Of a DNA stretch of 64,000 nt, positions 4,393 to 49,307 are shown piece by piece (the stretch's first letter is position 1; every line of letters starts with the position of its first letter). The stretch is taken from the NCBI GenBank assembly GCA_002269645.1, contig NIVC01000944.1, positions 248,001 through 312,000 of the forward strand. Reading direction: 5' to 3'. The position numbers were made by a program, and so were the translations under genes. This DNA comes from Macrostomum lignano. Its lineage: Eukaryota. The notes beneath the pieces are model-generated. The model worked only from the letters and a program-made list of their open reading frames with translations, had not been told where the DNA came from and did no database searches.

Positions 4393-4755
4393 TTTTTTTT
4401 TTAGAGGCAGGGGGGTTGTGTGCACCCTGGCGCACTTTAAGCGACATTGGCACACAACCGGCGAGAGGCATTGCTGCCCATTCCGCCGACTCCCCTGAGC
4501 AGGCATACAAGCGCGCGGATACGTACGCAGGCACACGCTCACACAGGAGTGTACAGCAGCCCTAACTTTATATTATCGTTAGGCATGTACACTTCACTGC
4601 GCCTTGGGGGGTTGGCTCTCAAGGCCGTTAATTGCACGAGCAGAGCCAAGCCGAGATTCCAATTCAGCCCCAAATTAATGTGACTGCACTTGGAATCGAG
4701 CCTGGGTCGCTGGCACACCAGAGCAGCTGCGCTACCGCTGGGCTACGGCCCCCCT
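4393..4755 (-). mobile_element. tRNA-derived SINE, copy 1
   Basis: On the - strand it starts GGGGGGCCGTAGCCCAGCGG (A box)...GGCTCGATTCC (B box) and ends in poly(A). 13-bp TSD TGTATATATGCAT at 4381-4393 and 4756-4768. Near-identical to 31723-32087. Confidence 0.9.
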
Positions 4756-13600: not shown

Positions 13601-14234
13601 GATGATGCTTTTCAAGGATATATTAAAAGAAGAAAGGTGGAAGGCAGCTGCCTTCCTTATGGCTAGCAATGATAGTGCCATTTAAAAAGGTCCTTATTCT
13701 CTCTGCCCTTAGTTTGCTCAATATGCCACTCCTCCAATGTATATTAGATTAGGACCCCACTTATACTATAGTTGAAATCTGCCCCTTCATTATATATATA
13801 AATCTATATCTAATGCTTTTAAGAATTTTCAATTAAATGATTTTCCTAATAAGGAATTCAAAAGAATATATATTTAAAAAGATTGCATGGCCATATAGGA
13901 TAGATATGTAAAATATAAAACTTTCATATTTATGGTCTATCAATACAAATATAATATTAGGTCTAATATAAAATAAATTTATATACAGTAATAGATGCTC
14001 ATACCAAATAAAAGTAGTATGCATTTATTTTCTTTAGTATATATGATTTTATTTTTAATTAAAGCAGTTAATAAGATCAAAAAATAATTTTATTGTTTTT
14101 TTAAGTTAAACTATTAAATTTGTCAAAAGCTTTACTATATCAAGTCAAATTTATATATTGCACTCATGCAGCCACTGATTATTCAGTAACAAGTTTAACT
14201 TGCTAGTTTATATACTTACTAGCAGCCCCCTGGA

Positions 14235-17200: not shown

Positions 17201-20200
17201 GCACTGCCCTGCGCAACAAGGGCGTGCAGCCGCTGCTGGACGGCGTGGTGGACTACCTGCCCAACCCCACCGAGGTGCAGAACTACGCCTTCAGGCAAGG
17301 CGAGCCGGACCAGGAGCCGGTCAGGCTGCACCTCAATCCCGAGCGCTCCTGCCGGCTGCCGTTCCTCGGGCTGGCGTTCAAGCTGGAGGCCGGGTCGTAC
17401 GGCCAGCTCACCTACTTCCGGGTGTACCAGGTGAGCCTTGGGTGGCTGAGCATGAGACTTCCGGGTGTACCAGGTGAGCCTTGGGTGGCTGAGCATGAGA
17501 CTTCCGGGTTTACCAGGTGAGCCTTGGGTGGCTGAGCATGAGACTTCCGGGCGTACCAGGTGAGCCTTGGGTGGCTGAGCATGAGACTTCGGGGTGTACC
17601 AGGTGAGCCTTGGGTGGCTGAGCATGAGACTTCGGGGTGTACCAGGTGAGCCTTGGGTGGCTGAGCATGAGACTTCCGGGTGTTCCAGGTGAGCCTTGGG
17701 TGGCTGAGCATGAGACTTCCGGGCGTACCAGGTGAGCCTTGGGTGGCTGAGCATGAGACTTCGGGGTGTACCAGGTAAGCCTTGGGTGGCTGAGCATGAG
17801 CATGAGTGCAGGTTCACCTTGCGAGCATGTATCTGTTGTACGTACGATGTCATTAGCATGTGTGCAACCAGCCGCTGTACGCCTGCAGGGCTGCCTCAAG
17901 CGCGGCGACACGATGACCAACGCGCGCACAGGCCGGAAAGTCCGAGTCCAGCGGCTGGTGAAGATGCACGCCAACGAGATGGCCGAAGTCAAGGAGGTGT
18001 ACGCTGGCGACATTTGCGCCACGTTCGGCGTTGACTGCGCCTCCGGCGACACCTTCGTGACTGGAAGCCTGCACGACGTCAGCATGGAGTCGATCTTCGT
18101 CCCGGACCCGGTGGTGTCCATGTCCATCAAGCCGAAGGAGTCCCGCATGCAAGAGAACTTCGCCAAAGGCCTGCAGCGCTTCCTCAAGGAGGACCCGACT
18201 CTGCGCATGTCTTTCAACGAGGAATTCCGGGAGACCATCCTGTCAGGCATGGGCGAGCTGCACCTGGAGATCTACGCGCAGCGGCTGGAGCGCGAGTACA
18301 AGGCGCCCTGCGTGCTGGGCAAGCCGAAGGTTCGGCCTCTGGGGGTTCTGATCTACAGACACTGAAACAGATGTTAGGACAGGCACCAGGACAGACGCAC
18401 TAGCACAGACAGGCACCAGGACAGACAGGCACTGGGAGAGACAGGCACCAGGACAGACAGGCACTGGGAGAGACAGGCACCAGGACAGACAGGCTCTAGG
18501 AGAGACAGGCACCAGGACAGACAGCCACCAGGACAGACCGGCACTGGGACAGACAGGCCCTAGGAGAGACAGGCACTAGGACAGACAGGCACCAGGACAG
18601 ACAGGCACTGGGAGAGACAGGCACCAGGACAGACAGGCACTAGGACAGACAGGCACCAGGAAAGACAGGCACTGGGACGGACAGGCACTGGGACATACAG
18701 GCACTGGGACATACAGGCACTGGGACATACAGGCATCAGGACAGACTCACTAGCACAGACAGGCACTAGGACGGACAGGCACTGGGACATACAGGCACTG
18801 GGACATACAGGCATCAGGACAGACTCACTAGCACAGACAGGCACTAGGACGGACAGGCACCAGGACAGACAGGCACTGGGACAGACAGGCACTGGGACAG
18901 ACAGGCACTGGGACAGACAGGCACCAGGACAGACAGCCACTGGGACAGACAGGCACCAGGACAGACAGGCACTGGGACAGACAGGCACCAGGACAGACAG
19001 GCACTGGGACAGACAGGCACTGGGACAGACAGGCACTAGGACAGACAGGCACTAGGACAGACAGGCACCAGGACAGACAGGCACTGGGACAGACAGGCAC
19101 TGGGACAGACAGGCACTAGGACAGACAGGCACTAGGACAGACAGGCACCAGGACAGACAGGCACCAGGACAGACAGGCACTGAAACCGACAGACGCGCGA
19201 AATTCGAATGCTGTTCTCTATCCGCTCTCAGGTGGCCTTCCGCGAGACCCTGTCGGAGCCGTACCAATTCGACTACCTGCACAAGAAGCAGTCTGGCGGC
19301 GCCGGCCAGTTCGCTCGCATCATCGGCGTAGTGGAGCCGCTACCCCCGGAGAAGTGCACCACCCTCGAGTTTGTTGACGAGACCACCGGCACCAACGTGC
19401 CAAAGAACTTCGTGCCGGCCGTGGAGAAGGGCTTCCGGTTGGCCTGCGAGAAAGGCCAGCTGACCGGAAATCCCTGCGTTGGCATGCGCTTCCGCCTGCA
19501 GGACGGCGCGCATCACAAGGTTTGTCAGTCTATGGTATCATGTGTCTCTCTAGTACCTTGTGTCACTCTAGTGCACCTTGTGTCACTCTAGTGCACATTG
19601 TGTCACTCTAGTGCATCTTGTGTCTCTCTAGTACCTTGTGTCACTCTAGTGCACCTTGTGTCACTCTAGTGCACATTGTGTCACTCTAGTGCACATTGTG
19701 TCTCTCTAGTACCTTGTGTCACTCTAGTGCACCTTGTGTCACTCTAGTGCACATTGTGTCACTCTAGTGCATCTTGTGTCACTCTAGTGCACATTGTGTC
19801 ACTCTAGTGCACATTGTGTCACTCTAGTGTACCTTGTGTCACTCTAGTGTACCTTGTGTCACTCTAGTGCACCTTGTGTCACTCTATTGTACCTTGTGTT
19901 ACTCTAGTGCACCTTAGTCACTCTTAGTGCACATTGTATCACCTTAGTGCACATTGTGTCACTCTATTGTACCTTGTGTCACTCTAGTGCACCTTGTGTC
20001 ACTCTAATGTCTAGTGCACATCGTGTCACCCTAGTGCACCTGTGTCACTCTGGCGGCCTTCTCACCTCAAGTGTCGCAATTTGAATTTCAGGTGGACAGC
20101 AGCGACTGGGCCTTCCAGCTGGCCGCCATGCATGCAGTCCGCGAGATGCAGGACCACGGCACCTGGAACCTGCTGGAGCCTGTGATGCTGGTGGAGGTGA

Positions 20201-20496
20201 ACACCCCGGTGGAGTTCCAGACGGTGGTGATGGCGGCGCTGGTCCGGCGCACCGGCCTCATCACCCACTCTGACCTCATGGAGGACACCTGTGTGATCGA
20301 GTGCGAGGTGCCGCTCAACCACATGTTCGGCTTCATCGGTGAGCTGCGCAGCCTCACGCAGGGCAAGGGCGAGTTCGTGATGGAGTACAGCCGCTACTGC
20401 CCCGTGCCCTCCGACCTGCAGCTGCAGCTCGTGTCCGAGTACCGCAACCTGGAGTCCCAGGCGGCTGGCAGCAAGAAGGCCAGCGCCAAGAAGTAG
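14235..20496 (+). CDS. GFM1: Mitochondrial elongation factor G1; exons 14235-14333, 14454-14729, 16177-16482, 17005-17430, 17889-18329, 19232-19519, 20092-20496 (2241 nt, 746 aa)
   Basis: Motifs [15 protein letters not shown] (G1), [55 protein letters not shown]. All introns are GT-AG. Exon 1 (Arg/Leu-rich, presequence-like) is the least certain. Confidence 0.95.
15004..16027. repeat. 50-bp minisatellite (GFM1 intron 2)
   Basis: TGTAGGGTCATTACTCTAGTAAGGCTATGGCCATC[A/G]GTATTCGGTCACA[A/G], about 20 near-identical copies. Confidence 0.97.
16513..16988. repeat. 39-bp minisatellite (GFM1 intron 3)
   Basis: CTGGAACCATCGGCACTCCTTCCTTTGCACCCAGGCACT x12. Confidence 0.97.
17414..17797 (+). repeat. 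43-bp minisatellite containing the GFM1 exon-4 end and splice donor
   Basis: ACTTCCGGGTGTACCAG|GTGAGCCTTGGGTGGCTGAGCATGAG x9. Confidence 0.97.
18378..19182. repeat. 16-bp minisatellite AGGCAC(T/C)(G/A)GGACAGAC (GFM1 intron 5)
   Basis: About 50 variant copies. Confidence 0.95.
19543..20050. repeat. 20-bp minisatellite TGTGTCACTCTAGTGCAC(C/A)T (GFM1 intron 6)
   Basis: About 25 copies. Confidence 0.95.
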
Positions 20497-29990: not shown

Positions 29991-30667
29991 TTTTTATCTT
30001 TACATTAACGGCGGTCACGCAGCTGTCTCACATTACGAGCTGCACGCTGGGCAACTTCTTTCATAGAATGAAAAAAAATTAAAAGTTTTTCTTCGTATTA
30101 TAACAAACTTCTTAAAAAGGTCTTTTTTCTCAGTTTTTACAACTCAATATAGCAATTGACGCAAAACGCATTCTGCCTTTTTGACTGTTTATAGTGATGG
30201 GACCGGAATTATAAAGACAGATCTACAGGTCTTCAACTTGTCGTACATGTAACTCTTTCTAATCTGTGCTGTACTCTCCGTGACGCTCTCAATACTACTC
30301 CAAAGGAGCTAGTAGTTAGAGTTAGGGTATGTGGTTAGTAAGGAGAGAATGAAGTGCCGGCGAGTTGGGCAAGGTTAGGGCGAGAAGAATTCCTTCCCCA
30401 CATCTCTATCTTACCAAATGGCAAGCACTGCATGCCATAGACAATTTAGATCTGCGCTGTACACTTCGAATTTCAAAACAGTTGCTTTATTATGGACAGG
30501 CAAGAAAACACTTTCTCAACAGGAGAAGTGACATCTTTGACTGGAGAATAGTCTATGGCCAACCTAGAAAAAAGGCAAGAGGGAGGGAATACAGGCATGA
30601 AAAGTTAACTGCAAGAATTTTTACTGGTGCCTCCTTAGCTCACCACCCCAACTTACCAAATCTTACA

Positions 30668-32794
30668 ATGCAAGCGGTCAGACAGCGACGGCAAGCAGCC
30701 AAGCAAGCCTTGCGAAACTTGGGCCTCGACAGCGAATCGAGCGATGATTCGAGCTATGACTCATTTTTCACTGCCGAGAGCGAGGGAGAGGACGGTGACG
30801 AAAATCAAGAAGGCAACGATGGACCGGAGGAAGACGATCAGGGAATGATGCACGATGATTGGAGATCAGTAACTCCAGAGACCGATGCTCGAGCTAATTC
30901 CCTTCCCGAGTTCCTCGGGGCAAGCGGAGTCAATCCGGGATTCTCCGTACCTGCTGATGTTGACGACGGCTGGACAGCCTTTTTCGAGCAATTTTTACCC
31001 GATGAGTTGCTGCTTCAGATGTGCATGTGGACAAACAAGAGAGCGCAGCTGGACATTGCCAAGTTTCAAGAAGAACACGGAGATGATGAACTGCCTTACG
31101 GGCTCAGAACGTGGAAGCCCTGCACTGTTTCTGAGATGAAGAAGGTGATCGGCGTTATATTATATACCGGAGTTGTACAGAAACCGGAGGTGACGGCTTA
31201 CTGGTCCACGGACCCGTTTTACTTTCATCCCTACTTTCAAAGCATGAAGATGCTTCCTCGCTCGCGGTTTCAACAAATCATGTCATGGCTGCGTTGCTAT
31301 GACTGTCTTGACTTCGACGCTGGTGATCCCTTGTGCAAGATCAGGCCGTTCCTAGACATGGTCCAGACAGTTTGCAAGAACAGCTACCTGCCCGGTCAAA
31401 GCATTGCCGTTGATGAAGCGCTGCTGCTCTATAAAGGGAGGCTGATTTTTAAGCAGTACATGCCCAACAAGAGAGCCAAGTTTGGCATTAAATTGTACTG
31501 CCTTGCAGAGTCTTCTACAGGCTACATGTGGAACTATCTGATACATTCAACCACCATTGCGAATGAACAGTTCGGCAACGATGTGCCGCAGCTCTCAATC
31601 AGTGAGAGAGTCGTCGTAGAACTTTGTCGCGACATTCTGGACCTTGGATATCGGGTCTTTTGCGACAGTTGGTTTTCATCGGTGCGACTGGCCAAGTTCC
31701 TTCTGACCAGAGGAACAACCTTTTTTTTTTATTAGAGGCAGGGGGGTTGTGTGCACCCTGGCGCACTTTAAGCGACATTGGCACACAACCGGCGAGAGGC
31801 ATTACTGCCCATTCCGCCGACTCCCCTGAGCAGGCACACAAGCGCGCGGATACGTACGCAGGCACACACTCACACAGGAGTGTACAGCGGCCCTAACTTT
31901 ATTTTATCGCTAGGCATGTACACTTCACTGCGCCTTGGGGGGTTGGCTCTCAAGGCCGTTAATTGCACGAGCAGAGCCAAGCCGAGATTCCAATTCAGCC
32001 CCAAATTAATGTGACTGCACTTGGAATCGAGCCTGGGTCGCTGGCACACCAGAGCAGCTGCGCTACCGCTGGGCTACGGCCCCCCCTGAGGAACAACCTT
32101 AACTGGGACCGTTCGCAAAGACCGAGGCGTTCCACCGATTCTGCGAGATATGCTCTTGCAACCACCGAGTCATTCCTTTGCCCGACATGGTGACATCCTT
32201 GCTGTGAAGCTGGTTGACAGGCGAAGCTCAGGAACAAAGACGGTCTATCTGTTGGACTCCTCTTCAACAGCTGCTAGCTCTTTGGTTAGCCGGGTACTGC
32301 GCGGTGGTGTGGAGCATCAGCTCCTGAAGCCCAACTCGGTGTTGCAATATAATCAGAACATGGGAAGTGTGGATCGGATGGATGCCGCAGCCCAGCCTTA
32401 CAGCGCATGCCGCCGAACGCACAAATGGTTCGTAAAGCTGGCGGTGTTTCTGCTACAGCAGCTGGTTCGCAACTCCTGGATTGTGTACCGACATCTAGGT
32501 GGATCCATGAGCTTTCTCAGCTACACTGAAAGGTGTATAAAGCACTTGATTGAAAGCAGCGGAAATGGTCGATCGAGAGTTAAGCGTCAGGCTCTTCCCC
32601 GTAAGCCAGGCGACATTCATCACCGGCTGGAAAAGCTATCCGCTACCGCAGCACAAGAACGGCCTACCAAGCGTTGCCGAGTTTGTTACCAGCGCAGACT
32701 GAAAAAGCGGACCGTCTACTTCTGCCAAGGCTGTGACGGTCAGCCTGGGCTTTGCCTGGAGCCGTGCTTCTTTGAGTGGCACTCGGCTAACTGA
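30668..32794 (+). pseudogene. piggyBac transposase split by a SINE insertion
   Basis: DDD residues in AVDEALL, FCDSWFSS and YNQNMGSVDRMD; KYGIK-like KFGIKLY; C-terminal cysteine-rich domain CRVC...CQGC...LCLEPCFFEWH. Removing the SINE and one TSD restores the frame (LTRGTTLTGTVRKDR...MLLQPP). Confidence 0.92.
31723..32087 (-). mobile_element. tRNA-derived SINE, copy 2
   Basis: Same sequence as 4393-4755 with a few substitutions; 13-bp TSD GAGGAACAACCTT at 31710-31722 and 32088-32100. Confidence 0.92.
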
Positions 32795-33915: not shown

Positions 33916-34709
33916 AAATCAGATAGGCCAAAAAGCAGATGAGTGATAGACAGACCGAATGACGGCGAAGGACAAACAGAAGAGCGGAGAAGAGGGATCA
34001 CAAAGTTAAAAATACACTCGTAGATATTAAGCAGATAAAAATGTGCAGGTATTAGAGATATTTCAAAATGACAAATATTACAAATATTACGGGCCAGGAG
34101 TAAAAAAGTTTTTTGTTGATTTCAAGGCCTTTATGTTCAATAGATGGAATGGCAGCAAAGATTTTGCGCTGCTTTGCGCGCATATTTATATTTACAAGAT
34201 TCAGGGGGCCAAGGGGGGTGCGAAAAGGTGGCGTGATAAACTTAGACATAGGTTGGGGGTTGCAAGTGCGGCTGCACTGGTGCTGGCCGGTCACGTATAT
34301 TCTGGCCGTCACAGTACAGAATAATACGAGCTCGCAGAATAAGGATTTTTCGGAGATTTAAGTTTTTTTCGTTTTTAGACTTCGGGCTTTTGGTTAGAGA
34401 TACTGCTGGTGTAATACTTAAGCTCTGGGCTTAGCTTTTAGTATGGATAGAGAAGAGAACTTGTCTTCATTTCAGCTATGTACAAGTGACGAGGCTTTAT
34501 GCTCTCGGCACGGAACACTAACCCTGCTGAAGCCCCATTCTCTTAACTTAGCGCAGACTTTACTGTACTAATTTTTTCTCTCTGGGGCCTCTGCTTCAGT
34601 GTGGTGTCTTGGTAAGAAGTTTTCATTGTGTTCTTTAAGACACGCGAAGCACAAGGCCGAAATCATGGTTCTGATGCATGATGAGAAGCAGAAAATGTAC
34701 ATAGCTGTC

Positions 34710-35017
34710 AGTAGTAGTGTTATATAAGGGGTTGCGCCACACTTATTGCTCGGGCGCATTGCGCGCCAGCTCGCTGGATGACTCAGCCCCTTATAACATA
34801 CTACTACTACCAGGAGGTCATGGATTCAAGTGGGGTGTGATATGTAAATATATATATATATCTGTGAGTGAGGGTGTTGGGGGTGAGGGCATGTGGGGGC
34901 ATTGGCTTGTGGAATATTTCACAGAACACAGAATTTCCGGAATTTTTATACTTTTAAAAAGGGGGGGTGCCCTCGCCCTCATGCCCTCACTCATTTTGAA
35001 AATCACTAAAAATAAGT
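34710..35017 (+). repeat. Left terminal inverted repeat of the Polinton-like element
   Basis: Reverse complement of 48363-48669 with roughly 7-8 differences by eye. Confidence 0.95.
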
Positions 35018-35222
35018 GAAAAATGACTAAAAACAGGTGAAAATGGTCTGAAAACAGCGATTTTTTGTGATTTTCAAAAATTTTGAAAAAGTGCAATTTT
35101 CACGATTCCAGCTCTAAAACCATGAGAAAAGTTGGATTCACGGGTCAATTTAATGCAATTTCAGATATATACAATATGAAAGTGTCATCTAATTTAACGA
35201 TAGTAAATTTTATAAATATAAA

Positions 35223-36578
35223 ATGGCCTTCAGTAAACCATTATTTCTAGGAAATGCTTTAGATATTCAGTCAGCTATAACAAAACTACCACCCATCTTC
35301 GCCACTGGAAAATATCCTGGCGAATTTCATATTCCAGGGTATTCTTTCACTGGCCCAGGTACAAATTTAGACAAGAGACTCAATCCAATTACAGACCGGC
35401 CTCGGTATGACAGTCTACCAATTAACCCAATCGATTGGACTGCTTACTATCATGACAAAAACTATAGAGATGCCGAAAACACTTCTTCAAATCCAGAGGA
35501 AGCTCTAGCAAAGAAGCACATTGCTGATGAAAAAATGATAGCTGATTTAGATGCTATTCCAACCAGTGACTTGTCTGTGAAAGAGAGACTCATTCGAAAT
35601 CTAGTAAAGCGTATTATCAAGGCTAAAGTTCGGTTTGGATTAGGAATTCTTACTCACAACCCCAACAATTGTATAGACTGTCTAACCATATACGGCAATG
35701 GTCTTAGCTATGAAGATGCTTTGAAATTGCATAAAGAATATCGAAAGCCAAGAGTATTTAGAAAAATGATTCACTATGCAAAAGACACAATTTGGCATGC
35801 AGATATCATTATCCTTCCTCCTGAAAGAGGTTACAAATATGCCCTCACTATCATAGATGGTTTTACACGTTACGCCTGGGCAGTTCCTTTGAAAACAAAG
35901 ACGGGAGCGGAAGTTGCAGAAGCTTTCCAAAAAGTATTTAAGGAATCAGGAAGACGATCAGAGAGACTTTGTGTAGATGAAGGCAAGGAGTTTTATAATC
36001 AGCATATGTACAAGCTATACTCGTTTTCAAAAGACGACATAAGAAAGAAAGATGAAAATGGGGAGTATATTAACAAGATGTTCTCAATTTATGGTGAGTC
36101 TAAGAATGCAATGATTGAGAGGTTCAATCGTACTCTCACAAATAAACTCTAGTTTGAATTTGATCTACAAGGAAACCAGAAGTGGCTCCACATATTGCCA
36201 GCTATTGTTGAAAAATACAACACAATCCATTCTGAGATTCTGATAACTCCTTTAGAAGCATCTAAACATCCTGAGCGAGTACCAAAGCCTTCATTTGAGT
36301 ATTCAAATGAGAAACCAAACTTCAAAGTAGGTGACAAAGTTCATATCTATAGATATAAGGAGCACTTTGAAAAGGGTCGAAAAGGTTATTGGAAAATTTC
36401 ACAATTGTTTAGGATAAAGAAAATAGTTTATTCAAATCCCATAACCTACATTATTGAGGATGAGAATGGAGAAGAAATTATTGGATCATTTTACAAATCC
36501 CAGCTTTTACCAGCAAATTTTCCAACAAAAAATGAGCGCCAATCGAACACACTGCAAACGGGCGAAAGGTCAGATTGA
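35223..36578 (+). pseudogene. Parvovirus-type phospholipase A2 fused to a retroviral-like (rve) integrase; in-frame TAG at 36150-36152
   Basis: PLA2 motifs GYSFTGPGT (Ca loop) and DWTAYYHDKNY. Integrase motifs WHAD, IDGFTRYAWAVPLKTK, VDEGKEF, IERFNRTL. The frame continues after the TAG into KYNTIHS and FKVGDKV (SH3-like C-terminus). Confidence 0.9.
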
Positions 36579-36954
36579 AACGTCTGATTCACAACTACTA
36601 GCTGATAAAGAGGGTGAAGGAATTGGTGATATGATCAGTGGTGTCACAAACTTTTTATCAAATCATGGAAGTAAAATTGTGAGTGGAGCTGATGCAATAG
36701 GTAAAACAGCTACCACAGCGAAGAACATATTCGATGCGAAGAAATCATACAGTGACATGTCTAAAGCAGGTGAGGAACTGGAATATATTAAAAAGAAACG
36801 CCGAGAAAAGGAAGCAAAGAAAAGAATGGAAGAAGAGCATCAGATAGCTTCACAATCAAACAAGGCCATTCAAGATATTGTTAAAAAGGCTCTAGGAACA
36901 GCAGAACAGTCTCAAGTGTCTTTGAGACAAGGCAATGGTTTGAAGAAATTCTGA
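36532..36954 (+). CDS. Putative virion core protein with an adenovirus pVI-like amphipathic helix
   Basis: EGEG|IGDMISGVTNFLSNHGSK, a coiled coil and a C-terminal QGNGL. ATG in AAAAAATG context. Homology is by eye only. Confidence 0.5.
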   Translation: MSANRTHCKRAKGQIETSDSQLLADKEGEGIGDMISGVTNFLSNHGSKIVSGADAIGKTATTAKNIFDAKKSYSDMSKAGEELEYIKKKRREKEAKKRMEEEHQIASQSNKAIQDIVKKALGTAEQSQVSLRQGNGLKKF

Positions 36955-36962
36955 CCTTAAAA

Positions 36963-37420
36963 ATGAGCGAGAAAAACACTGAAGCAAGACTCAATCGATA
37001 TGTTCGAGAGGGAAAACCAAGATATGTTACTGTAAATAAGCAAAAGCAATATCTTTCTAAAGAGAAGATTCGAGAATTGCAAGAGAAACAGAAAGAACAT
37101 GAAGGTGGAATAATTCCTCTATTAGGCTTACTACCAGCAATTTTGGGTGGTATCGGAGCAGCCTCAGGAGTTGGTACAATGATTGCAAAAAGTGTAAATA
37201 CAGCCAACAATGCTAAGCATAATAAGAAAATAGAAAGCATTGAACGGCAAAAACTAGAAGAGTTGAAAAAGGCTCAAGGGAGTGGAGTGTTAGTTGATGC
37301 GGCTAAAAGAGTCGAACAAGTACCGTACCCAGCAAAGCAGTCAAGTGGCTGCTAAAGACTTTTAAAGTTGAAAAGGAGAAACAGGGTAATGGGATAATTC
37401 TTAGACCTCACGAAGCTTAG
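36963..37420 (+). CDS. Adenovirus pX/Mu-like core protein precursor; probable frameshift near 37310
   Basis: A basic N-terminus precedes EGGIIPLLGLLPAILGGIGAASG. A shifted frame ends KQGNGIILRPHEA* at 37420. Confidence 0.6.
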
Positions 37421-37440
37421 TTGAAATTTCTCGTATAAAA

Positions 37441-38592
37441 ATGGAGAACAAAAAGGATATACTGAACCTATATGAGAGCAAAACTTTTAGCTTTTTCAAA
37501 AAGAAAGAAGACTATATTAAGATTTCGCCCACACCAGGTAGCACTAATAATCTCAATGTTGCAGGAGGTCAAATAGTTCATGAAGTCAATTCAACAGAGT
37601 CATACATTCTCATGTCAGAGGCATTCGGTTTTATAAGATACTCGATAACACAGCGAGATAACACAGACTTGAATACGAACATTACTCTAGAACATAATTG
37701 GCCTATGCGTCTGTTTTCTCAACTTATTGTGGACATAGGAGGATCAAAGAAAGTATATAATGATCCTGGAGAGTATGACACAATCTTAAAGTCCGTAATG
37801 TACTCAAAATTAATGAATGAAGTTGGAGAAGCATACGGATGGATTCCAGACACTGGAGATGCTGGGACTGTTTCTGATATACCTCTAGCAAACAACGCAG
37901 ATGCTGAAGCTGTGAGAACTGCAGCAATCGCTATGAAAAATAGACTTAATAAGAAGGATTCGAATACTGGATACATTAGGAGGCTTGAAAATTATAATGT
38001 CACTAATGCTCCAAACAGAGGTGGAACAATCAAACTATCATTAACACCCCTCATTGGGTTCCTTGATTGGCAGAAGATTAGCAAAGGAATTAAATACAAA
38101 TTTACATGGACAAGAAAGACTAACGATGCTGAAATTTTCTTTGGAGCTGCTGGGACGGAAGCTAAGTTAACTATTAATAGCTTTGAGATTTGGATCCCTG
38201 CTATTACTTTGTCACTCAGTGCTGAAGAAGCTTTTCTAAAATCACTCAACAAGGACATTACAGTATCATTTCCAGAGAGGGTAACGGTTCCGCCACAACT
38301 CATTCAAGGAAGTCCATATACATGGAACATAACCAGCGTCTCCAATATGCCACTTGCAATCTTTGTAGCCTTCAAATATGACGTAAACAATCCATCATAT
38401 ATAGTTAATGATCACAAGTATGTATCTTACAAGACTGGAGCAAATGCAGTAAAAATAACCCAGCTTCAAGTCAGATTAAATCAGGCGATGTATCCAACTG
38501 ATTATGTTGATATTGATCCAGTAGCTCAAGACATTCATAAAGCGTATGAAATGTACGAGGACATCTGCAGCCATTTCGGTGTAACTCCGTGA
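37441..38592 (+). CDS. Double jelly-roll major capsid protein (Polinton PY/hexon-like), probably C-terminally truncated
   Basis: LFSQLIVDIGG...NDPGEYDTILKSVMYS, PLIGFL, KLTINSFEIWIPAI, QLQVRLNQAMYP follow the Polinton MCP pattern as I recall it. Beta-rich, 383 aa, ending abruptly at a small duplication. Confidence 0.75.
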   Translation: MENKKDILNLYESKTFSFFKKKEDYIKISPTPGSTNNLNVAGGQIVHEVNSTESYILMSEAFGFIRYSITQRDNTDLNTNITLEHNWPMRLFSQLIVDIGGSKKVYNDPGEYDTILKSVMYSKLMNEVGEAYGWIPDTGDAGTVSDIPLANNADAEAVRTAAIAMKNRLNKKDSNTGYIRRLENYNVTNAPNRGGTIKLSLTPLIGFLDWQKISKGIKYKFTWTRKTNDAEIFFGAAGTEAKLTINSFEIWIPAITLSLSAEEAFLKSLNKDITVSFPERVTVPPQLIQGSPYTWNITSVSNMPLAIFVAFKYDVNNPSYIVNDHKYVSYKTGANAVKITQLQVRLNQAMYPTDYVDIDPVAQDIHKAYEMYEDICSHFGVTP

Positions 38593-38666
38593 TGAGGATG
38601 TAACTTCGGTGATGAGGATGAGCAAGATTTGTATAAGGATGTTCTAACTAAAATCCCATTGTAAAA

Positions 38667-39398
38667 ATGACTAATGAATATATAAGACAACTCATTAATT
38701 TAGCAAAGCAGCGAGAAATGTACAAATCCAGAAATGATGCTCAACGCTATTTGAAAATTGGAGAAGAGAGTTTATATGCAAGAGTGGCTCCATTAGCTCA
38801 AAAACCTGTCACAGAAAAGCTTGATCAATTTATTGATGTCAATGCCAACCTTGTTGATAAACTTCAGAATCAAAAAGTTCCAGTTCCGCAATCAAGTACA
38901 CCAAAAGGACGATTTGAACCTCTGGAAGTATTTGACAAAATAATTGAAGAAATTGGAAAGATTCCAATAACTCAAAGACCAGCACCTAGTATACGAATTC
39001 AAAAAACAGATGCTGGATATATATTTGGATCATCTGTAATAGATGTTGAATTCCATGAACAAGGTCGAGACATCATTGTCAACGAATTTCGAATGCCATT
39101 TTCTGAAGATCTTGAAGAGTTGTTCAAAATGCCTAAAGTAACTGAAAATGGTGAAGAGCTGAAGCAATTCAAGATGCAAACATTGCAGGATTATGTTAAC
39201 CTCATTGAACACTGTAAAAATCCAGCAGCCAAATCAAGTGGGAATTATAAGCAAGCAGTAAGGATATTGAAAGATAATCCACCAGGATATCGAGTAAAAC
39301 CGGGATCTGGACTCAGTGAAAGAGTGTTGACATTACTAGCCGCAAAAGCAGAGGGACATAACAATGTTGATAAAGAGCTAGAAGAATTACTTGCTTAA
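38667..39398 (+). CDS. Uncharacterised Polinton-type protein, 243 aa
   Basis: Open frame with a TAAAAATG start and a KPGSGL motif near the C-terminus; no function assigned. Confidence 0.6.
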   Translation: MTNEYIRQLINLAKQREMYKSRNDAQRYLKIGEESLYARVAPLAQKPVTEKLDQFIDVNANLVDKLQNQKVPVPQSSTPKGRFEPLEVFDKIIEEIGKIPITQRPAPSIRIQKTDAGYIFGSSVIDVEFHEQGRDIIVNEFRMPFSEDLEELFKMPKVTENGEELKQFKMQTLQDYVNLIEHCKNPAAKSSGNYKQAVRILKDNPPGYRVKPGSGLSERVLTLLAAKAEGHNNVDKELEELLA

Positions 39399-39400
39399 AA

Positions 39401-40194
39401 ATGGAAAAAGAAATAGAAAAAGTCAACATCCTCATGAGTAAAAAGTTTCAACGCACATTTGACTTCTTTTCAATTAAAAACCCATTTCGACAAACTCTAG
39501 GCACTCCGATAAATTTGTATGAAGATCGAGAATACGAAGCTGGTATAAAAAAGTTTGCAGTATTTGATGCCATTAACAATATTGAAGGAGGCAATAATGA
39601 GTTGCGATACTCGAGGGATAGTGGTAGAACATGGAAAAAAATAAAGATTCAAGCAGGATCTTGGGAAGTTAAAAGTCTGTCAAGTGAGATTCAAAGATTG
39701 CTAACAGCTGCAAATGATTGGAAAGAGGGAGCTATTGTCTTCAGTGCAAGCCTAGACACGCGTAGAGTTGAGTTACGGTTAGCCACAGATTATCAAGTTG
39801 ATTTCAGGGATGCACATTCCAATAATTTTAGAAGAGACTGTTGGGATTCAATTCAGAAGTGTATTTGAAACCATTTGAGAGAGCTCCAAATCCAGCTCGG
39901 ATAGACGGAGCTAGAAGTGCGATCATGGTTCGTTGTCTAAATATCAAAGGGGGTTTTATCACTAATCCAGCCAATGGAAATCATTTAATTGATAAGCAAA
40001 TACTTCTTTCAATTCCATCGTTCTCTGTCCCAATGGGAAGTAAAATTATTCAAGAGCCTGCAAATCCTGTGTACCTACCACTAACTACAAACATGTTGAG
40101 CACATTCGACTTTGTCATTGAAGATGAGTCTGGTGTTCTATACGACTTTGATGGCGAGGAAATATTTATAAATCTACACGTACGACAAATATGA
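39401..40194 (+). pseudogene. Single jelly-roll minor capsid (penton) protein; frameshift near 39835
   Basis: INNIEGGNNELRY...KIQAGSWEVKSL, then (shifted) LLGFNSE...IIQEPANPVYLPL...YDFDGEEIFINLHVR. Confidence 0.8.
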
Positions 40195-40203
40195 GTGTTA
40201 AAA

Positions 40204-40635
40204 ATGAGCGAAGCTGAGACATGGAATGCATTTAAACAAAAGTTTGGGACTGACACTACGACTAATATTGATCTGATAAATTGGGCAAAATATCTCAAGT
40301 TAAAACCATTTCGCTATGCCATGAGAGATGAAATTATTGATTTACCACAGTATGGTTACTTTATGACAAATATTCACACTTCGAAAGAACGGGGTATACA
40401 TCATTCAGCTATCTTTTCAGCTCCTGATAAGGTTTATTTTTTTGATTCCTATGCACTACCGCCCACACTAGAAATTATGGAAAAGTTTAATCACACAAAG
40501 AATAGAATATGTGGAGACATGGAAGAACAAATTCAAACTTTAGATAAGAAATTTTGTGGTCAAATGTCGCTGTACTTTTTACATCGAATCGATAAAGGAG
40601 ATAGCTATAATGAAATTTTGCAGCAATTAAAATGA
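40204..40635 (+). CDS. Adenain-like (C5) cysteine maturation protease
   Basis: NIHTSKERGIHHSA (His), FFDSY (Asp), QIQ...FCG (Gln, Cys). Confidence 0.85.
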   Translation: MSEAETWNAFKQKFGTDTTTNIDLINWAKYLKLKPFRYAMRDEIIDLPQYGYFMTNIHTSKERGIHHSAIFSAPDKVYFFDSYALPPTLEIMEKFNHTKNRICGDMEEQIQTLDKKFCGQMSLYFLHRIDKGDSYNEILQQLK

Positions 40636-42009
40636 GTTACAAGAATACTGCCAATCAATTTGGTTACTCGTCAAATTCAAATGATATAGCACCTGGAATA
40701 ACAATAGCGTTAGCTGATGATCGATACATCAATGAAAATGAAGGATATAAGAGAGAGGAAATAGATAATTTATTGTTAGCAAAGAGAAATGTTTCAGACT
40801 CTTATTCAAAGGAAGATAGTGACGCAATGAATATCACCATGCTAAAATTAATTGACGATGCTCATGGGCGCGTAAACAATGTCTACACAAAAACCGAAAT
40901 TGACACTATGATGTATTCTAAAACTGAGATTGACACTAAGATGTATTCTAAAACTGAGATTGACACTTTGTTAGCGGAAAGGCAAGGTACTGCGGCAGGT
41001 ACAGAGAGTTCGAAATTAGTCAATATTCTTTCATTACTGACTTCAAACGCTTCCCATCCTGACATGAAAGTGACCGCTTCTCATAACTCTTCAGCAGCAT
41101 ATCATGTTGCAGATTCAAACCCAGCTTCAGAATGGAGCAGTGTAGATGACTCAGACAAGTGGATACGATTTCAATTTTTGAAAAGAGCTAGGAAAGTTGT
41201 AGAGATAAAGTTGGAAGGAGAGGTGTGGCCTGGTTGGTCTGTTAGTGTGAGCCTAAATGGAACAAACTGGACACCTGTTGAACAAAGTGCACCCATTGAA
41301 CTACGAAGGGCAATGCACATCTTAGGAAAAAATACCCAATCCCTCATATTATTTCCATTATTCTCTTAATTTTTCTGGTTCCGTAAAGCTTACAAAAGTT
41401 GAATTACTTGAGAGACAAACAGTGGTTAATGATTTAGTGTGGCCTATAGATAGACTTCAAGCTGTACCAAAGCTATACGTAGACAATGCACTTGAATCAG
41501 TGGAGCTGCGACTAAGGCGGGGACTAGGTTTCAAATCTTATACAGGATATATCCCCCCACTAGCAACACGTCAAAACTATAGAGAAAGGGGTTTCAATGT
41601 AGCGTCATCAGGAGCATTTGAAACGTCAGATAATTGGGGTTATATAGTATCTAATTCAGAATGGGCATCGAGGAATGAACCCAATTCTTACATTGAAGTA
41701 CAACTTCCCGAGTCTATTCAAATTTGGAAATTCGGATTGAAAGGAACCAAAGCAGTAGGTAGTGAAATTATAAAAAATCAACCAAAAAGTTTTATTTTAA
41801 AAGGTAGCAATAACAAGAGAGACTTTAAAAATATTTTTTCTACCGAAAACGCTGGTTTAGTTCCTGGAGTGATGAAGTATTTCGAAGTAGCTTTCACCGA
41901 AAAATTCTCCGTTTATAGAGTGCATATTAATTCGGCCACTGAAGGATCAACTGTTCTTATAGTTTCAGGCTTTCAACTTTATCCGATTTTAGACATAATT
42001 GCCACATAA
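40632..42009 (+). pseudogene. Fibre/receptor-binding-like protein with Y(S/T)KxEID repeats and two discoidin (F5/8 type C)-like domains; +1 frameshift in an A6 run at 41327-41332
   Basis: YTKTEIDT/YSKTEIDT x3. Domain 1: VTASHNSSAAYHVADSNPASEWSS...WIRFQF. Domain 2: VASSGAF...WAS...SYIEVQLP...FILKGSNN...FSVYRVHI. Confidence 0.65.
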
Positions 42010-42011
42010 AA

Positions 42012-42745
42012 ATGAATGATAAAAATGAACACATCTATCCTGTGGTTGAGCTGCATGAAGCAGATTTGAGGGAGCGGGACTATTTCAACCAGAGAAAGGG
42101 TGAAATCAAAGGCAGTATTGAATGCATTACTAAAGATCTTACAATTTATAGCAAAAAGGTAAAAAAGAAAAAAGGATAAATTGGATCAACATTGTGACAG
42201 GAAATGTAAGTCTCTTGGCTGCTACAGGAATTGGCATAGCAACATCGATACTGATATTGAATCCCTTAGTCATTGGAGTAGTAATCGGGGCAATGAGTGG
42301 TTTTGAAGCTGTAAAATCCACGTCGTTGTTTGCAACTGTGAAAATGCATTGCCAAAAGCAGAAGGCAAAATACATTGTTCTCAGAGATCTGGCAAATCAA
42401 TATAGAGAGAGATTGTATATTTACTCCCAAAAAGCAGTTGATGATTATAGATTAACTCTTGAAGAGGTTCAAGCAGCTGCTGCAATTTATTCAGAATACA
42501 GAGAGAAAAGAGATCAATTGTTAGACACCTGTGTTGCGCCTGAAGAAGTTAACCATTCGGAAGTCGTTGATAAAATCCTTAAAGAGAGTAGACTTGGTCA
42601 ATCAGCGAAGGAAAAAATTAAAAAGGAACTGCTGGAGAAAGATCTGAGAGAAAAATTGGGTCAAAGCCATTGGGATAAGCCAAAAGAGTACTCGGCAACA
42701 CTCAATCTTCAATCAAATGCTCCAAGTGCGCCCCCCTATGCTTGA
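42012..42745 (+). pseudogene. Small membrane protein with two hydrophobic helices; frameshift at ~42165
   Basis: A TAAAAATG start at 42012 reads to TAA at ~42177; the -1 frame continues into VSLLAATGIGIATSILILNPLVIGVVIGAMSG. Confidence 0.55.
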
Positions 42746-42770
42746 GTCTGTTTAATTTTTTTTCTTAAAA

Positions 42771-45700
42771 ATGGAAATGAAAATACCAGCGGCCTCTTAT
42801 GAATTTGATCTCGACTCCGTTGAAGAAATTCCCGGTTTAATCTCCCCAATTCTTTCTAAACATTTGATGACTAGAGATTCAATAAAATACAGAATTTCCT
42901 TTGTCGCAGAATTTTATAAAGGAACTACCGACAGTTGGATTGAGTTCCAATATCATTCAAAGTATCGAACTTTGTTAAATCTGCTTCAAGTTGAAGATAG
43001 TATTGAAAGTACAATAAGGGATGTTCTGGATGAATTTGATGAATGGAAGGATAGTTTTAATGAAAGGGGATCGGGATATTATTTTGTTAAGTTAGTAAAG
43101 ATTGTGTTGAAAGTTGTTGGCATTAATCAGTTGAAAGGAGGAACTTATATTCCAATTCCAATTAAATCAAACGCATTAGTAAATGTTAAGAACACTAAAG
43201 ACAATAGGTGCTTTCTCTGGTCTATTTTAGCAAAGCTCCATCCTGTGAAGGAACATAGATATAGAGTTGGTAAGTATACACAGTATATAAATGAAATAAA
43301 CTTAGGAGACGTTAAATTTCCAGTGGACATTCGAGATATCTCTGATATTGAAAAGTTGAACAGTCTTCATATAAATGTGTTTGGATTGAGAGATATAAAT
43401 ACTAAAGAGTCAATATATTCTATTCGTCTGACAGAAGATTACGACAACCCCGATGTTATTGATTTACTACTTGTTGAAAATCATTATTGCTTAATAACAG
43501 ACTTGTGTTTATTCCTCACGTCCCAAAATTACAACAGGGTTTTTCTTTGTCGAAAGTGTCTTCAAGTCAAATACTCCCAGGATGCACTGGATAATCATAA
43601 AGCAATCTGTAATGACTTCAAAGTGTCAATTGAAGTTCCAAAGATTGATAAGAGGATATTAAAGTTTAAAAACTACCACATGAGTGTAAGAAAGCCATTT
43701 GTGTTTTATGCTATATTGGATTATGTAACTTTGGATGATAAATCGCTAGAACTATCACAATGGACACTTTTTACTAGTTCTGATTATGAAGACATTATAC
43801 AGTCGGATATTATTTCAAATACTACAGTGGAATCATTCGTTGAAACCGTAATAAAAAAGTTTGAGCATATAAAAAATGAAATGGATAGATATAAACATCC
43901 AAGATTAAGTGATGTCGAAGAGACTGATTACAAAGCGGCAGAACAATGTTTTCTCTGCTCAAGGCCATTTGTAGATAGTAAAAAAATTCGAGAGCATAAT
44001 CACTACAATGGTAAATATCGCGGCGCAGCATGTCAATCATGTAATACCAAGGAGGGCAAGGCGAATCAAACGGTGCCATTGTTTCTCTTGAATGAATCTG
44101 GAAAAGATCTAAACTATTTGATAGTTCCATTAACAAGAATAAAGAATGCAGCATATAAATTGGATTTCATTTCTAAAACATCTGATGACCATGTTGCAAT
44201 CAAGTGGGGGAATTATACCAGTGGTGTTGTGTTTTTAGATGGATCTAGGTTTTTGGAACCACCATTTACACTCTCTGAAGAAGAAATAAAATATTTGCCA
44301 CCCAGTGATACAACAGCAGTAATTAGAAAGATTTACTCATTTGTCAATGCTTTTGAGACGTTTCGATCAACATTTTTGAAATATTTCAAGATAGATCCTG
44401 CGTATTGCTTTTCCCTTTCTGGATTATCGTGGGCATGTGGGTTGAAATATACCAATGTGGAATTGGAATTACTTGGTGATAAAGATATGATATCCATGGT
44501 AGAAAGTGGTATTCGCGGCGGTTTCTCTGGAGTTCTTGGAGAAAAATGAATAACAAGTATTTAGAAAATTATGACAGCAATTCTGAATCGTCGTACATGC
44601 TATACTTGGACAAGAATAATTTATATGGTGAAGCAATGATGAAAAATCTACCTGTGGGAGATTTCAAGTTTGAAAATGATCTAGAGTATCACAAGAATAT
44701 TCCCCAATGGCAGGGGTTGTTTTCTTGAAGTTGACCTTGAATATACAGAGGAATGTAAGAAAGCTACAAGTAAATATCCACTGGCTCCTGAGAAACGAAC
44801 AACTAGATTTGAGGATTTATCTGATATACAAAAGCAATATCTTGAAGTCGAAAAGAAAAAGTTTGTTCAATCCAAGTTGATGTTGACATTTTACAACAAG
44901 GAGAAATATGTTTTACATCACAGACTACTTGAGTTTTATGAGAAGATGGGCATGCGAGTTATGAGAGTTCATAGAATTATTTCATTCAAAGAATCAAACT
45001 GGTTGAGTAAATACATCGAATTTAACACCAGGCGGAGAATGGAAGCAAAAACTAAATTTGAGAAAGACCTGTGGAAACTACTAAACAACTCATTCTACGG
45101 TAAAACAATCGAAAATGTAAAGAATAGGTCGAACTTTCATCTTGTAGCTGAAGAAAAAACTGCAAGGCGTTATTTTTCTAAACCAAATTTCAAAGATTTC
45201 ATTATGTTTAGTGAGGATGCGGTTGGTATCCAAATGTACAAAAAGACAATTGCGTGTGACAAGCCAATTTATTTAGGAATGGCTATTCTGGATTATGCAA
45301 AAATGCTAATGTACGATTGCTATTACAATGTTATTGAGAAGAATTGGAACAGCTGTCAATTGCACTATTCTGATTGTGATTCGCTAATATTCTCAGTGAT
45401 TACTCAGGATGTTTATGAGGATCTTGAAAAAATTAAATAACACTTAGACACATCGGATTATCCAAGAGAGCATCCACTATACTCCGAGAAGAATAAGAAA
45501 GTCATTGGAAAGTTGAAAGATGAAATGAACGGTTCAATAATTTCCGAAGCTGTATTCCTGCGGTCAAAGGAGTATGCTTTCACTACAGTTTCAGGGGAGT
45601 GTGTTAAGATTAAGGGAGTTGATAAAGGCAGTACAAATATAAAGTTTGAAACATTTAAAAACATACTATTGACAGATTACAAAGATATTCAAAGAGGTAG

Positions 45701-45830
45701 AGTAAGTATGACTGTATCTGAAAAAAATAAAATATATATTCGTGAGATTATGAAACAAACAATGAGTCCGTTAGATGATAAAAGATATTATTTGGATCCT
45801 ATCAGATCTATTCCTTATCAGCCAATGTAA
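42771..45830 (+). pseudogene. Protein-primed family B DNA polymerase; frameshifts at ~44545 and ~44705, in-frame TAA at 45438-45440
   Basis: CFLWSILA, endonuclease VII-like CFLC...EHNHYNGKYRGAACQSCN, GIRGG, YLDKNNLYG (motif A), KLLNNSFYGK (motif B), YSDCDS (motif C), GKLKDE, KGV, DDKR. Confidence 0.95.
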
Positions 45831-48317
45831 TCTCATTGATAACATCTTCGTTTATTTTTTTCGTGCACTGTAGCAACACATTTCTAGTTTCTTGCTGTTT
45901 ACCATCTATCCTACGCCTATATCTATCCTTATAATACTTACAATAGTCTTTGTGATTCTTGAAGAAATCTGTTATGTATTGTTGTTGGAATTCACGTTTC
46001 TCACGTTGGGCTAGAGTCCTATAGTATTCACTCTCTGTTGCGGCAGTGTAAATTTCTCTAATAAGCATAAATGTTTTTTCCTCAGTTTCTAAAAATTCAT
46101 AATTCTCTTCAAAGAAGTGAGAAAACCAATTACAATTTTGTATGAATTCATTAGTGTTTTCAATTACGCTTTTCGATCGATATATTTCACCCTTTGTTTG
46201 CTTGAAAATTTCTAGTAGGTTTTTCATCTCAGCAAACTTATATTTATTCTTAAATTCCTCGGTTTTAAGATATGAATCGGCTTTATAAATGTGTTTCGCA
46301 TGATCAATGATGTCGGTATCTGTTGTATATTTACATGGGTAATTAATATTTATAATTCGTCTTTTTTCTGCATCTCCAATATTTTGTCTAAAGTCAGGCT
46401 TGTTATTACATTCGACTATCAGAGTTGCGTGTAAAACGACATTACACTGGCTTGAATATAAATTTCTAGCTTGGATAACCCCACCAACAGTTAGTAATTT
46501 TATTGATGCATTGTTCAAGACACCACTTACTTCTTGACTGATAACCAACCTCTTTTTAATAATTTTTGCTAGGGCTGGTTGTGGCATGTCTATTCTTATT
46601 GGTAAATTCAAAACATCAGGACTCAGTGGTGCTGCATAATCAGATCCTAGATTTCTAAGAAGTAGGTTGTCCTCAACCCCTTGCCATTTCCACCAGCGCC
46701 ATCAAACATTATAAAGTTTTCAACATTCTTACCCATTAGAGCTGTGGCTATAACGGATTCCCAACTCTTTCTGTTTTCTGGATCGGGATGAATTTGGTTA
46801 TGCAGATTAACAATGAACTCATAGTCGTCATCACTCACTCCAAGTACATCCGAGTAATTATATCCCACCGATTTAGTAACGTAATCGTCAAATCTATACT
46901 CGCGAAACTCACCTGTAAGGAGGTCGTATACTCCATCGTTAAACCCTAGCAAATTCCATTTCATGTCGAATTCAATTTCATTGTTAGTAAACCTCTCTTT
47001 GAACAAAGTAGTTACCTGTTTGAGTTTGTTGGCTCCTTGTATTGAATTTATATTCTTCATTGTACTCTGTAGTTTCTTTTCAAGTGCTTTTAACTTTTCT
47101 TTATCATCAGCCGCCTTCTTAATTGCAATTTCGAGTCTAGTCTTTCGGTGGTTTAACTCACTGCTAACAAGGTCTGATATTTTAAGAAATATGTCATTTA
47201 TACTACTTAGTTCTCTCCACTTATCATCATCAAAATAGTAAACACCATCGCTATTGTAAATTATATTATTCTTCTTATATTCATAAACAAAGTTGGTTAT
47301 GTTAACGTCAGTGAAATTATCATCAAGATACTCAATCCTACCATAATAATCATATTTGCTTTTCCATTCCTTATATTTACAATAATTTTCTTCACTAGCC
47401 CATTTCTTTAGTGTACCGATAGTAAGTCTGTCCTGTGCATCAGCAGAGCTGGTATTGGTGCTATTCCACACATTTTTACATGCCTCGGAATCGAACTTAT
47501 CATAATTTACTTTTGACCAATCAGTGAATACTTTGTACATTTCATCACCACTGTCTATGTCGCGGAGTATAAGTGCTACCTTGTACCAAGAATCATAGTC
47601 TTGGTTTTTGTGCTGTATTATACTTAACAACTTTGAAGCTCCTTCACAAGTGGGTGGTTGAACGGTGCTTTTTAGTGCCTGTTTATCGGGTTCTTGGTTT
47701 TCTTTTTTATCCTGTGGCTTTATTAATCTATTTATCTCATCAAGAATTACAACTGGCATGTCTATTAAACATTTGGACTTTGTACGTTTGTATTCCTTAA
47801 TTTCACCATCGACATAATAGAAACCTGGTGGAGCAAATACTAAGGCGGGAATATCAAAACCCACACTTTGTTGAATCGTTACTTTCAATCCATCTACCTT
47901 GTTAAAGTAAAAGTGATGACCCTTGTTTGTCTGAACAATCCAATCACAATGAGTCATACACAGTTCATTCAACTCAGGGCATAGGTCAGCATTATCAATA
48001 TCGATTATGGTTATATTTGAGTTTCTAGTATCTATCCAAATCATGTTGTCTACATCTGGTCGAAATGGTGGTGAGGTTGAATTCCTATCTGCTTTGGTTG
48101 GCATTCCTGATGGTATTTTTTTCTTTGTTTTACTATTCCATGTTACACTGCAACTTCCGAATCTAAAATTAAGTTCTCCATAGAGATTAATTAGTTTATC
48201 GTACGATTTTGTTTGTTCTAAATTTGTCAATCTTGGTGGTGGGGCATCATGGTTTTGAAGCGGATCCTGTACGATCACAGGAGAGAAACTTGAATCGTTT
48301 TGATTTTTTCTTTCGAT
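45808..48317 (-). pseudogene. Prim-pol/PriCT-2/D5-like superfamily 3 primase-helicase; frameshift at ~46680, start codon possibly mutated to ATC at 48317
   Basis: IIDID, QTNKGHHFYF and VFAPP (prim-pol); YDSWYKVALIL...WSK...KFD...W (PriCT-2); LLGFNDGVYDL (D5_N); GAGGNGKG (Walker A); KRLVISQE (Walker B); QARNLY; RRIININY. Confidence 0.9.
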
Positions 48318-48362
48318 TTTATTTAAAATAAATTTAAATATATTAATTTAAATTTAAATTTA

Positions 48363-48669
48363 ACTTATTTTTAGTGATTTTCAAAATGAGTGAGGGCATG
48401 AGGGCGAGGGCACCCCCCCTTTTTAAAAGTATAAAAATTCCGGAAAATCTGTGTTCTGTGAAATATTCCACAAGCCAATGCCCCCACATGCCCTCACCCT
48501 CAACACCCTCACTCACAGATATATATATATTTACATATCACACCCCACTTGAATCCATGACCTCCTGGTAGTAGTAGTATGTTATAAGGGGCTGAGTCAT
48601 CCAGCGAGCTGGCGCGCAATGCGCCCGAGCAATTAAGTGTGGCGCAGCCCCTTATAACATACTACTACT
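48363..48669 (-). repeat. Right terminal inverted repeat of the Polinton-like element
   Basis: Matches 34710-35017 in reverse complement. Confidence 0.95.
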
Positions 48670-49307
48670 GCTGTCTGCTTGTCGGGAGGCAAATAGCATT
48701 ATATATATGAGCGTAACTTGGGAGTTTCGCAACTTAGAGATGCGGCATTCGCTCGGTAAAGCTATGTGCTCTTCAACAAACAAAATACAAGCTTCCGAAG
48801 CTCACCTTTAATATCGCCAAACATAGCAAGCAATTATATCGTTGGAGAAAGTGAGTACATGAAAATTTGATCGTGTTGTTACCTTTTTGTTAGATGCCGA
48901 TCATTCTAATCTTTGTAGCCCTTGAATGTTCAGATATGCTCAGCAACATTGAAAAGTTGCCGCTCTATGCGCCAGTGAGCAATTTCTCTTGGACCATTCT
49001 GAAATAAAAGACTGAAATAAAAGACGAAAAAACTGATCGGGGTAGCTTTAATCCGTCCAACCCTCGCACACCGCTCCACCACTTCATTCCACAACTCAAG
49101 TCTTCCGTCGCGTAGCTGAGTTGCGTCACTCACAAATATTGAGAGACTTTACCTACACTCTCAAAAGTGGCCACCACGGACGAAATCTTCTGTGATGGCG
49201 ACTTTTCGATGTTGCTAAGTATATACCATTGACTGTTCAGATATGTCTTTGAGTAGTAGGCATGATGACAGTTCCAGGCCAAAATTGTCAAAATCCCCCT
49301 TAGATCC

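Follow-up and report, generated by a model that had tools for sequence, protein, structure and literature searches.

A predicted group I intron with a restriction-type nuclease gene, and the loss of GGNCC sites, in Polintons of Macrostomum lignano

The window analysed here is a stretch of 64,000 nucleotides from the genome of Macrostomum lignano (GCA_002269645.1, contig NIVC01000944.1, positions 248,001 to 312,000 of the forward strand), and it contains a Maverick-Polinton of 13,960 bp at positions 34710-48669. The element is a deleted, intron-less copy of a multicopy animal family, here called family A. Its sibling copies carry, inside a gene fusing PLA2 to the integrase, a predicted group I intron that encodes a restriction-type nuclease, and their genomes are almost free of the word GGNCC. 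We consider the intron to be the feature that matters most; it was invisible to an earlier, sequence-only reading of this stretch because the window copy lacks it.

The element and its sibling copies

The element has AG...CT termini, terminal inverted repeats (TIRs) of ~310 bp starting with AGTAGT, and a 6-bp target-site duplication (TSD), GCTGTC. Together with the rve integrase, motifs A-C of the protein-primed family B polymerase (pPolB) and a double jelly roll capsid, these bear out the Polinton/adintovirus identity given in the sequence-only reading. The hairpin tips that it described were also recovered as imperfect palindromes of ~100 nt (DNA fold z -3.7 and -9.8; 0/200 shuffles as low). 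Its capsid, discoidin fibre and minus-strand prim-pol/D5 helicase agree with Pfam matches, its protease with Peptidase_C5 look-alikes, and its PLA2-integrase gene with Pfam PLA2-like and rve matches in a single frame. The labels "pVI-like" and "pX-like" were left without Pfam support, and the penton label is favoured by position and by Preplasmiviricota look-alikes (0.98) but has no Pfam match. The features are as follows.

34704..34709, no strand: left TSD, GCTGTC
34710..35021, plus: left TIR, the part in common with the right end (570-640 bp in siblings); the first 99 nt are an imperfect palindrome
35223..36578, plus: PLA2-integrase fusion gene, intron-less allele, with a premature stop at 36150-36152
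35352..35356, plus: sole GGNCC of the window element (Gly-Pro, PLA2 loop); the siblings' predicted group I intron lies between 35354 and 35355
36460..36954, plus: open reading frame (ORF) of 164 amino acids (aa), likely a virion core protein by position only; no Pfam match
36963..37355, plus: 130-aa ORF with a glycine-rich hydrophobic stretch, likely a virion protein; no Pfam match
37441..38592, plus: major capsid protein, truncated by a deletion to 383 of 454 aa; Pfam double jelly roll
38589..38609, no strand: scar of a 954-bp deletion (capsid C-terminus and A32 ATPase gone)
38667..39398, plus: 243-aa ORF; an ORF of similar size comes after the start of the capsid gene in the second family
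39401..40194, plus: likely minor capsid protein (penton), frame interrupted near 39835
40204..40635, plus: adenain-type maturation protease, resembling Peptidase_C5 clusters
40632..42009, plus: fibre-like protein with two discoidin (F5/8) domains (Pfam), frame interrupted near 41320
42012..42745, plus: membrane protein, weak SLATT_1 match (E 0.024), frame interrupted near 42170
42771..45830, plus: pPolB carrying an EndoVII-like insert and having lost exonuclease motifs I and III; its frame is broken in the window copy
45808..48326, minus: Prim-Pol/PriCT-2/D5 primase-helicase (832 aa in siblings; Pfam), frame interrupted near 46670
48359..48669, minus: right TIR, shortened by a deletion; the last 100 nt are palindromic
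48670..48675, no strand: right TSD, GCTGTC

The TIR has at least 40 matches in the genome at 91-100% identity (40 scored of 163 candidates). Copies that retain both ends are 17.8-22 kb long, and siblings encode a 257-aa Pox_A32 protein where the window copy has lost 954 bp after 38588, that is, the last 70 capsid codons and the ATPase gene. The "missing ATPase" proposed as a family trait is thus a deletion of this one copy. The description "complete-ended" holds for the ends, but compared with copy C2232 the element also lacks ~1.5 kb ahead of the right TIR, and interruptions, some of them possibly assembly errors, affect the frames of the integrase, penton, fibre, membrane protein, pPolB and helicase. 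The copies are 96-99% alike, and pairs with common flanks are not independent.

The intron, its nuclease and the GGNCC sites

In many siblings, an insert of ~880 nt splits the Gly-Pro codon pair of the PLA2 loop, at the point corresponding to window 35354/35355. Five of five intron-bearing family-A loci scored match Rfam RF00028 at 82.6-91 bits (cut-off 50), and no RF00028 match was obtained in the window element or in L040. There are at least 28 filled sites (full-length among the 41 insert matches listed) and at least 25 empty ones (uninterrupted among the 40 empty-junction matches listed, the window included). Exon 1 spans 44 codons and ends in U, so that a P1 pairing with a U-G wobble is possible, and the terminal intron base is G in 26/26 parsed family-A introns (2/28 were not parsed). 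Read-through into the intron meets a stop after four codons; in 10 of the 26 parsed, exon 2 has an open frame of 408 aa. The insert is likely a self-splicing group I intron, as predicted from its sequence. In the assembled contigs of four presumed RNA runs, the joints at the intron site carried the letters of the intron-less allele and no exact splice joint was present; assembly drops rare forms.

A second Polinton family in the genome (family B; integrase ~60% identical, with a different gene order, TSD and a 267-nt tip palindrome) bears, in at least 40 copies, a 330-nt form of the intron that contains no ORF and sits at the same PLA2 codon. Three compensatory pairs in P7 separate the two families, with the G-binding pair (G-C) retained (23 A and 25 B copies parsed). 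Beyond this genome, metagenome contig L318 encodes a PLA2-integrase with an intron at the same codon (80.6 bits) and a nuclease inside it. Among 122 viral loci with the intron motif, the nearest intron cores were mostly giant-virus introns in other genes, and neither PLA2 nor family genes were found nearby. One decayed intron copy, L161 (C1464), has a tandem-repeat array within its core.

The ORF inside the intron, kept at 200 aa or longer in 15/28 full introns, matches Pfam RE_Eco47II (30.1 bits, cut-off 25.9). The structural model used was built from a 16-row alignment (pLDDT, the predicted local confidence, 93; 46 from a single sequence), and it matches EcoO109I (TM 0.71, E 1.7e-4), DdmD and AvaII. 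Residues D65, E76 and K78 are invariant across the 16 rows, and dN/dS values of 0.16-0.25 in three pairs indicate that the nuclease is under purifying selection. The protein appears as a restriction fold of ~160 aa, with no extra DNA-binding domain seen. EcoO109I and AvaII cut GGNCC-type sites. Eco47II homologues are linked to GGNCC as well, a link stated without certainty in the accessible text of PMC10305163. Judged by its relatives, the intron nuclease likely cuts GGNCC. It resembles the type II enzymes Eco47II, EcoO109I and AvaII in Pfam family, fold and catalytic motif, but differs from their systems in that no cognate methyltransferase was matched among the ORFs scanned from both families, protection apparently coming from site loss and the intron. 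Scans for the context of the closest nuclease homologues gave one close locus, L318; 9 of 15 metagenomic homologues read on into sequence resembling a translated intron core, and distant homologues sit in giant-virus contigs.

Every Gly-Pro codon pair spells GGNCC, and depletion of this word in the elements was predicted before counting. The count is zero in six intron-bearing family-A elements (12-21 expected per copy; ~21 from dinucleotides) and in the complete family-B element (20 expected). The window element has one GGNCC against 15 expected, and this single site, 35352-35356, is the empty intron site. GGNCC was the most depleted of 256 spaced pentamers in 4/4 elements ranked; stricter expectations of 7.6-12.8 gave P from 4e-3 to 3e-6, and 0/200 third-order Markov simulations were as low. 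Across 18 kb, both families have lost the site with each of the four N. The host flank is not depleted (125 against 140 expected in a sub-word test), nor was a third Polinton-like stretch purged (7 against 10.8 expected).

In the 14 proteins counted, Gly-Pro occurs once against 8.6 expected. Intron-bearing copies at short loci have 2 GGNCC in 83,977 aligned bases, and empty junctions keep the site in 22/25 and have lost it by Pro-to-Gln in 3/25. Within family B, C757 has one GGNCC, and C926 has eight, within an insertion that splits its polymerase. Two further observations concern site avoidance. In the complete family-B copy (L173-L174, C1530), CCNGG is also low (7 against 20 expected), which hints at a second avoided site, and in the PLA2-integrase fusions P0023, P0025, P0027 and P0068, Ile, Val or Ala replaces Gly-Pro in the loop, possibly another escape from a GGNCC cutter.

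Proposed mechanism and its rivals

We consider it probable, from these sequence patterns, that the nuclease cuts GGNCC, that the virus is immune through site loss and the intron, that splicing restores the PLA2-integrase, and that empty alleles are converted or destroyed. Self-splicing of the intron would yield a PLA2-integrase of 452 aa, which would probably be packaged and be cleaved by the protease of the virus. The nuclease, having no methylase partner, would cut any GGNCC, and would thus be a methylase-free restriction enzyme acting as a homing endonuclease. The virus would be spared as it has lost all GGNCC and as the intron breaks, in DNA only, the one Gly-Pro codon pair that the PLA2 loop keeps. 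An intron-less sibling such as the window copy would be cut once, at its empty site, and would then either be lost or be mended with an intron-bearing copy as template (homing), and site-rich DNA of the host or of a helper virus would be exposed too. A wider claim, to which we give slightly less than an even chance, is that animal Polintons possess a methylase-free restriction system against rival viruses, intron-less siblings and perhaps the host, with immunity by site loss plus a site-hiding ribozyme.

As in homing systems, the nuclease ORF lies inside the intron and empty cognate alleles are present; the word counts point to a 5-bp site, against the 14-40 bp typical of homing endonuclease recognition. 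Intron presence requires five changes on a tree of 970 downstream bases (41/50 rows; nine were left out for short homology), where a single clade is rejected (p-AU, approximately unbiased test, 0.00026). The introns of L086 and L087 are ~92.5% identical to that of L063 on near-identical flanks, filled and empty alleles differ only at positions -6, -4 and -1, and the right TIR of three copies includes PLA2 exon 1, its end lying three bases short of the intron site. These data fit homing with breaks at the site, and would also fit ordinary recombination.

Several points weigh against the proposed mechanism. Inside an animal nucleus, a nuclease with a 5-bp site and no methylase partner should be toxic, which the mechanism does not explain; the cutting and the splicing are themselves predicted. 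The scattered intron presence could reflect ordinary recombination of mosaic elements, and no homing sweep is apparent because empty alleles are about as common as filled ones (at least 25 and at least 28 among the matches listed). The purge rests on two families as independent units, not on seven genomes. An Eco47II-like gene was present in only one of six family-B elements read (C4485, free-standing and broken), and the complete family-B copy has zero GGNCC yet no such gene. Intron-less C1101 and C620 have five core GGNCC each, not one, and none of the 42 loci with distant nuclease homologues was free of GGNCC, i.e., no purge was seen there. As for the ribozyme, P10 pairing is weak, the RF00028 cut-off was reached by 1/8 intron-bearing family-B elements, and 12/25 family-B introns end in A rather than G with P7 intact (L298-L317, L152-L165).

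In one rival reading, the nuclease would be an ordinary homing endonuclease with a lengthened site, like I-Ssp6803I, whose sole target is the empty PLA2 allele, and the loss of GGNCC would be a relic of an earlier, less specific enzyme. I-Ssp6803I has a long recognition site of ~23 bp. Genome-wide loss here points instead to a 5-bp site, the likeness lying in a restriction fold that a group I intron encodes; the accessible text of PMC3943268 documents I-Ssp6803I and the existence of PD-(D/E)xK homing enzymes. A lengthened site would explain low toxicity, the positions that go along with the intron are just -6, -4 and -1, and family B is at zero sites mostly without a nuclease gene. We nevertheless regard it as unlikely, given that the loss covers all four N over 18 kb in two families ~60% alike in integrase, that GGNCC reappears in intron-less copies, and that the protein comprises only a ~160-aa restriction fold with no additional DNA-binding domain seen.

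It is more doubtful still that an outside enzyme, from a helper or rival large DNA virus, drives the site loss, with intron and nuclease as passengers acquired from that viral pool and empty alleles arising by intron loss and recombination. The closest intron cores, and distant nuclease homologues too, are in giant-virus contigs, and the intron would help to hide the site whoever makes the enzyme. But the elements themselves carry a matching enzyme family, inside or beside the intron and under purifying selection, and the same pairing of intron and nuclease recurs in L318.

The family-B gene upstream of the intron is either the broken Eco47II-like gene of C4485 or an ORF with HNH-like motifs by eye and no Pfam match. 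With a nuclease-like gene that stands on its own immediately upstream of an intron lacking an ORF, family B recalls collaborative homing in phages, as described in the accessible text of PMC11296320; the present case differs in involving a eukaryotic virus, with free-standing and intron-borne nuclease states in one host genome. Likewise, RF00028 introns occur in small integrating DNA viruses of protists, the polinton-like viruses (PLVs), in a gene near the capsid gene; the accessible text of PMC12220804 has them in Paulinella, Desmodesmus and Rhodomonas only, with no annotated nuclease, whereas the present intron interrupts PLA2 in an animal genome and encloses an Eco47II-like ORF. No report of this intron-nuclease pair was found in the literature searched, the scope of which excluded subscription journals and bioRxiv supplements that may hold Rfam tables.

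If the proposed mechanism is correct, the system would be a living intermediate between restriction enzymes and homing endonucleases. The group I intron would protect the virus that hosts it, and the virus would have a novel means of harming competitors without harming itself. The metazoan cases of group I introns, in basal lineages and some sharks, are organellar. Dozens of working copies would then reside in an animal nuclear genome, where such introns are held to be missing; according to PMC10964413, metazoans have none outside basal lineages and some sharks. Both homing and the loss of sites require replicating DNA copies to encounter one another, and would to that extent be indirect evidence of viral behaviour in animal Polintons.

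Replication module, family placement and surroundings

All family-A pPolB copies read are without the Exo I acidic pair and Exo III, with ~87 residues lost and motifs A-C kept. Family B retains Exo I-III, has a DNA_pol_B_2 match on its polymerase and shows no primase-helicase match; relatives of the family-A primase-helicase are distant only (27-37% identical). Replication likely combines a non-proofreading pPolB with a primase-helicase acquired from elsewhere. In phi29 polymerase, mutants of the exonuclease site are deficient in strand displacement, and because of this we put forward, tentatively, that the helicase may take over that function here.

By gene content alone, PLA2 and the variable replicase suggest that the window element is a group 2 Maverick-Polinton. 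With this group and the Alpha adintoviruses (PMC8502044; bioRxiv 10.64898/2026.06.19.733378) it shares pPolB, rve, the double jelly roll capsid, the A32 ATPase (in the siblings only), the adenain protease, a PLA2 domain, TIRs, a 6-bp TSD and a replication module that varies and includes AEP-SF3. For group 2, the preprint describes PLA2, AEP-SF3 helicases and module swaps. Group 2 has a separate PLA2X, whereas here PLA2 is fused to the integrase, pPolB and primase-helicase occur together, exonuclease motifs are lost and a group I intron with a nuclease is present; the word "intron" has no occurrence in the preprint's text (bioRxiv 10.64898/2026.06.19.733378).

The "unusual gene set" of the sequence-only reading stands in part, the ATPase gap being an artefact of the copy and PLA2-integrase fusions and module swaps being known elsewhere. 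Fusions are represented by at least 16 other proteins, aligned over both domains among 150 listed; a search for longer PLA2 fusions (at least 542 aa) gave none, and a deletion artefact as the origin of the fusion was ruled out by exon analysis. Palindromic TIR tips are already described for protist virophages and PLVs. That reading's undescribed lineage, defined by no ATPase, a fused PLA2, a second replicase and hairpin tips, is very improbable: pPolB beside a full primase-helicase with an exonuclease domain dead in all copies read is unusual, and no close capsid relative was found in viral contigs, but siblings have the ATPase, PLA2 fusions are common and module swaps are described for group 2.

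The host is an animal, with a peptide-type G-protein-coupled receptor in the window and an intron-bearing copy adjoining an ENaC/DEG channel gene. Protist contamination was ruled out by these two genes and by a repeat common to that copy and the window. A search for arthropod cuticle domains gave no match, with a control that was silent too, and is hence uninformative. Window 1216-20496 holds host genes with introns filled by tandem repeats (EF-G-like, cilia coiled-coil-like and a rhodopsin-family receptor), and transposase-like ORFs, of piggyBac type by eye, adjoin the element at 30353-32794.

Copies also differ in arrangement. The block of membrane protein, pPolB and primase (window 41989-48348; copies in L031-L058) is window-like in six copies and inverted in seven, with short similar sequences at its junctions. 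Outer tip palindromes lay in one orientation in 29/29 of a biased set, with no flip-flop seen. An accessory region varies between copies (L031:7100-9200, L038:1-1000, L036:7243-8300), with a RING-finger ORF, Gln-rich ORFs and tandem repeats, and behind a truncated family-A copy lies another Polinton-like stretch with a separate PLA2, rve and Adeno_PX (L058:3900-10000).

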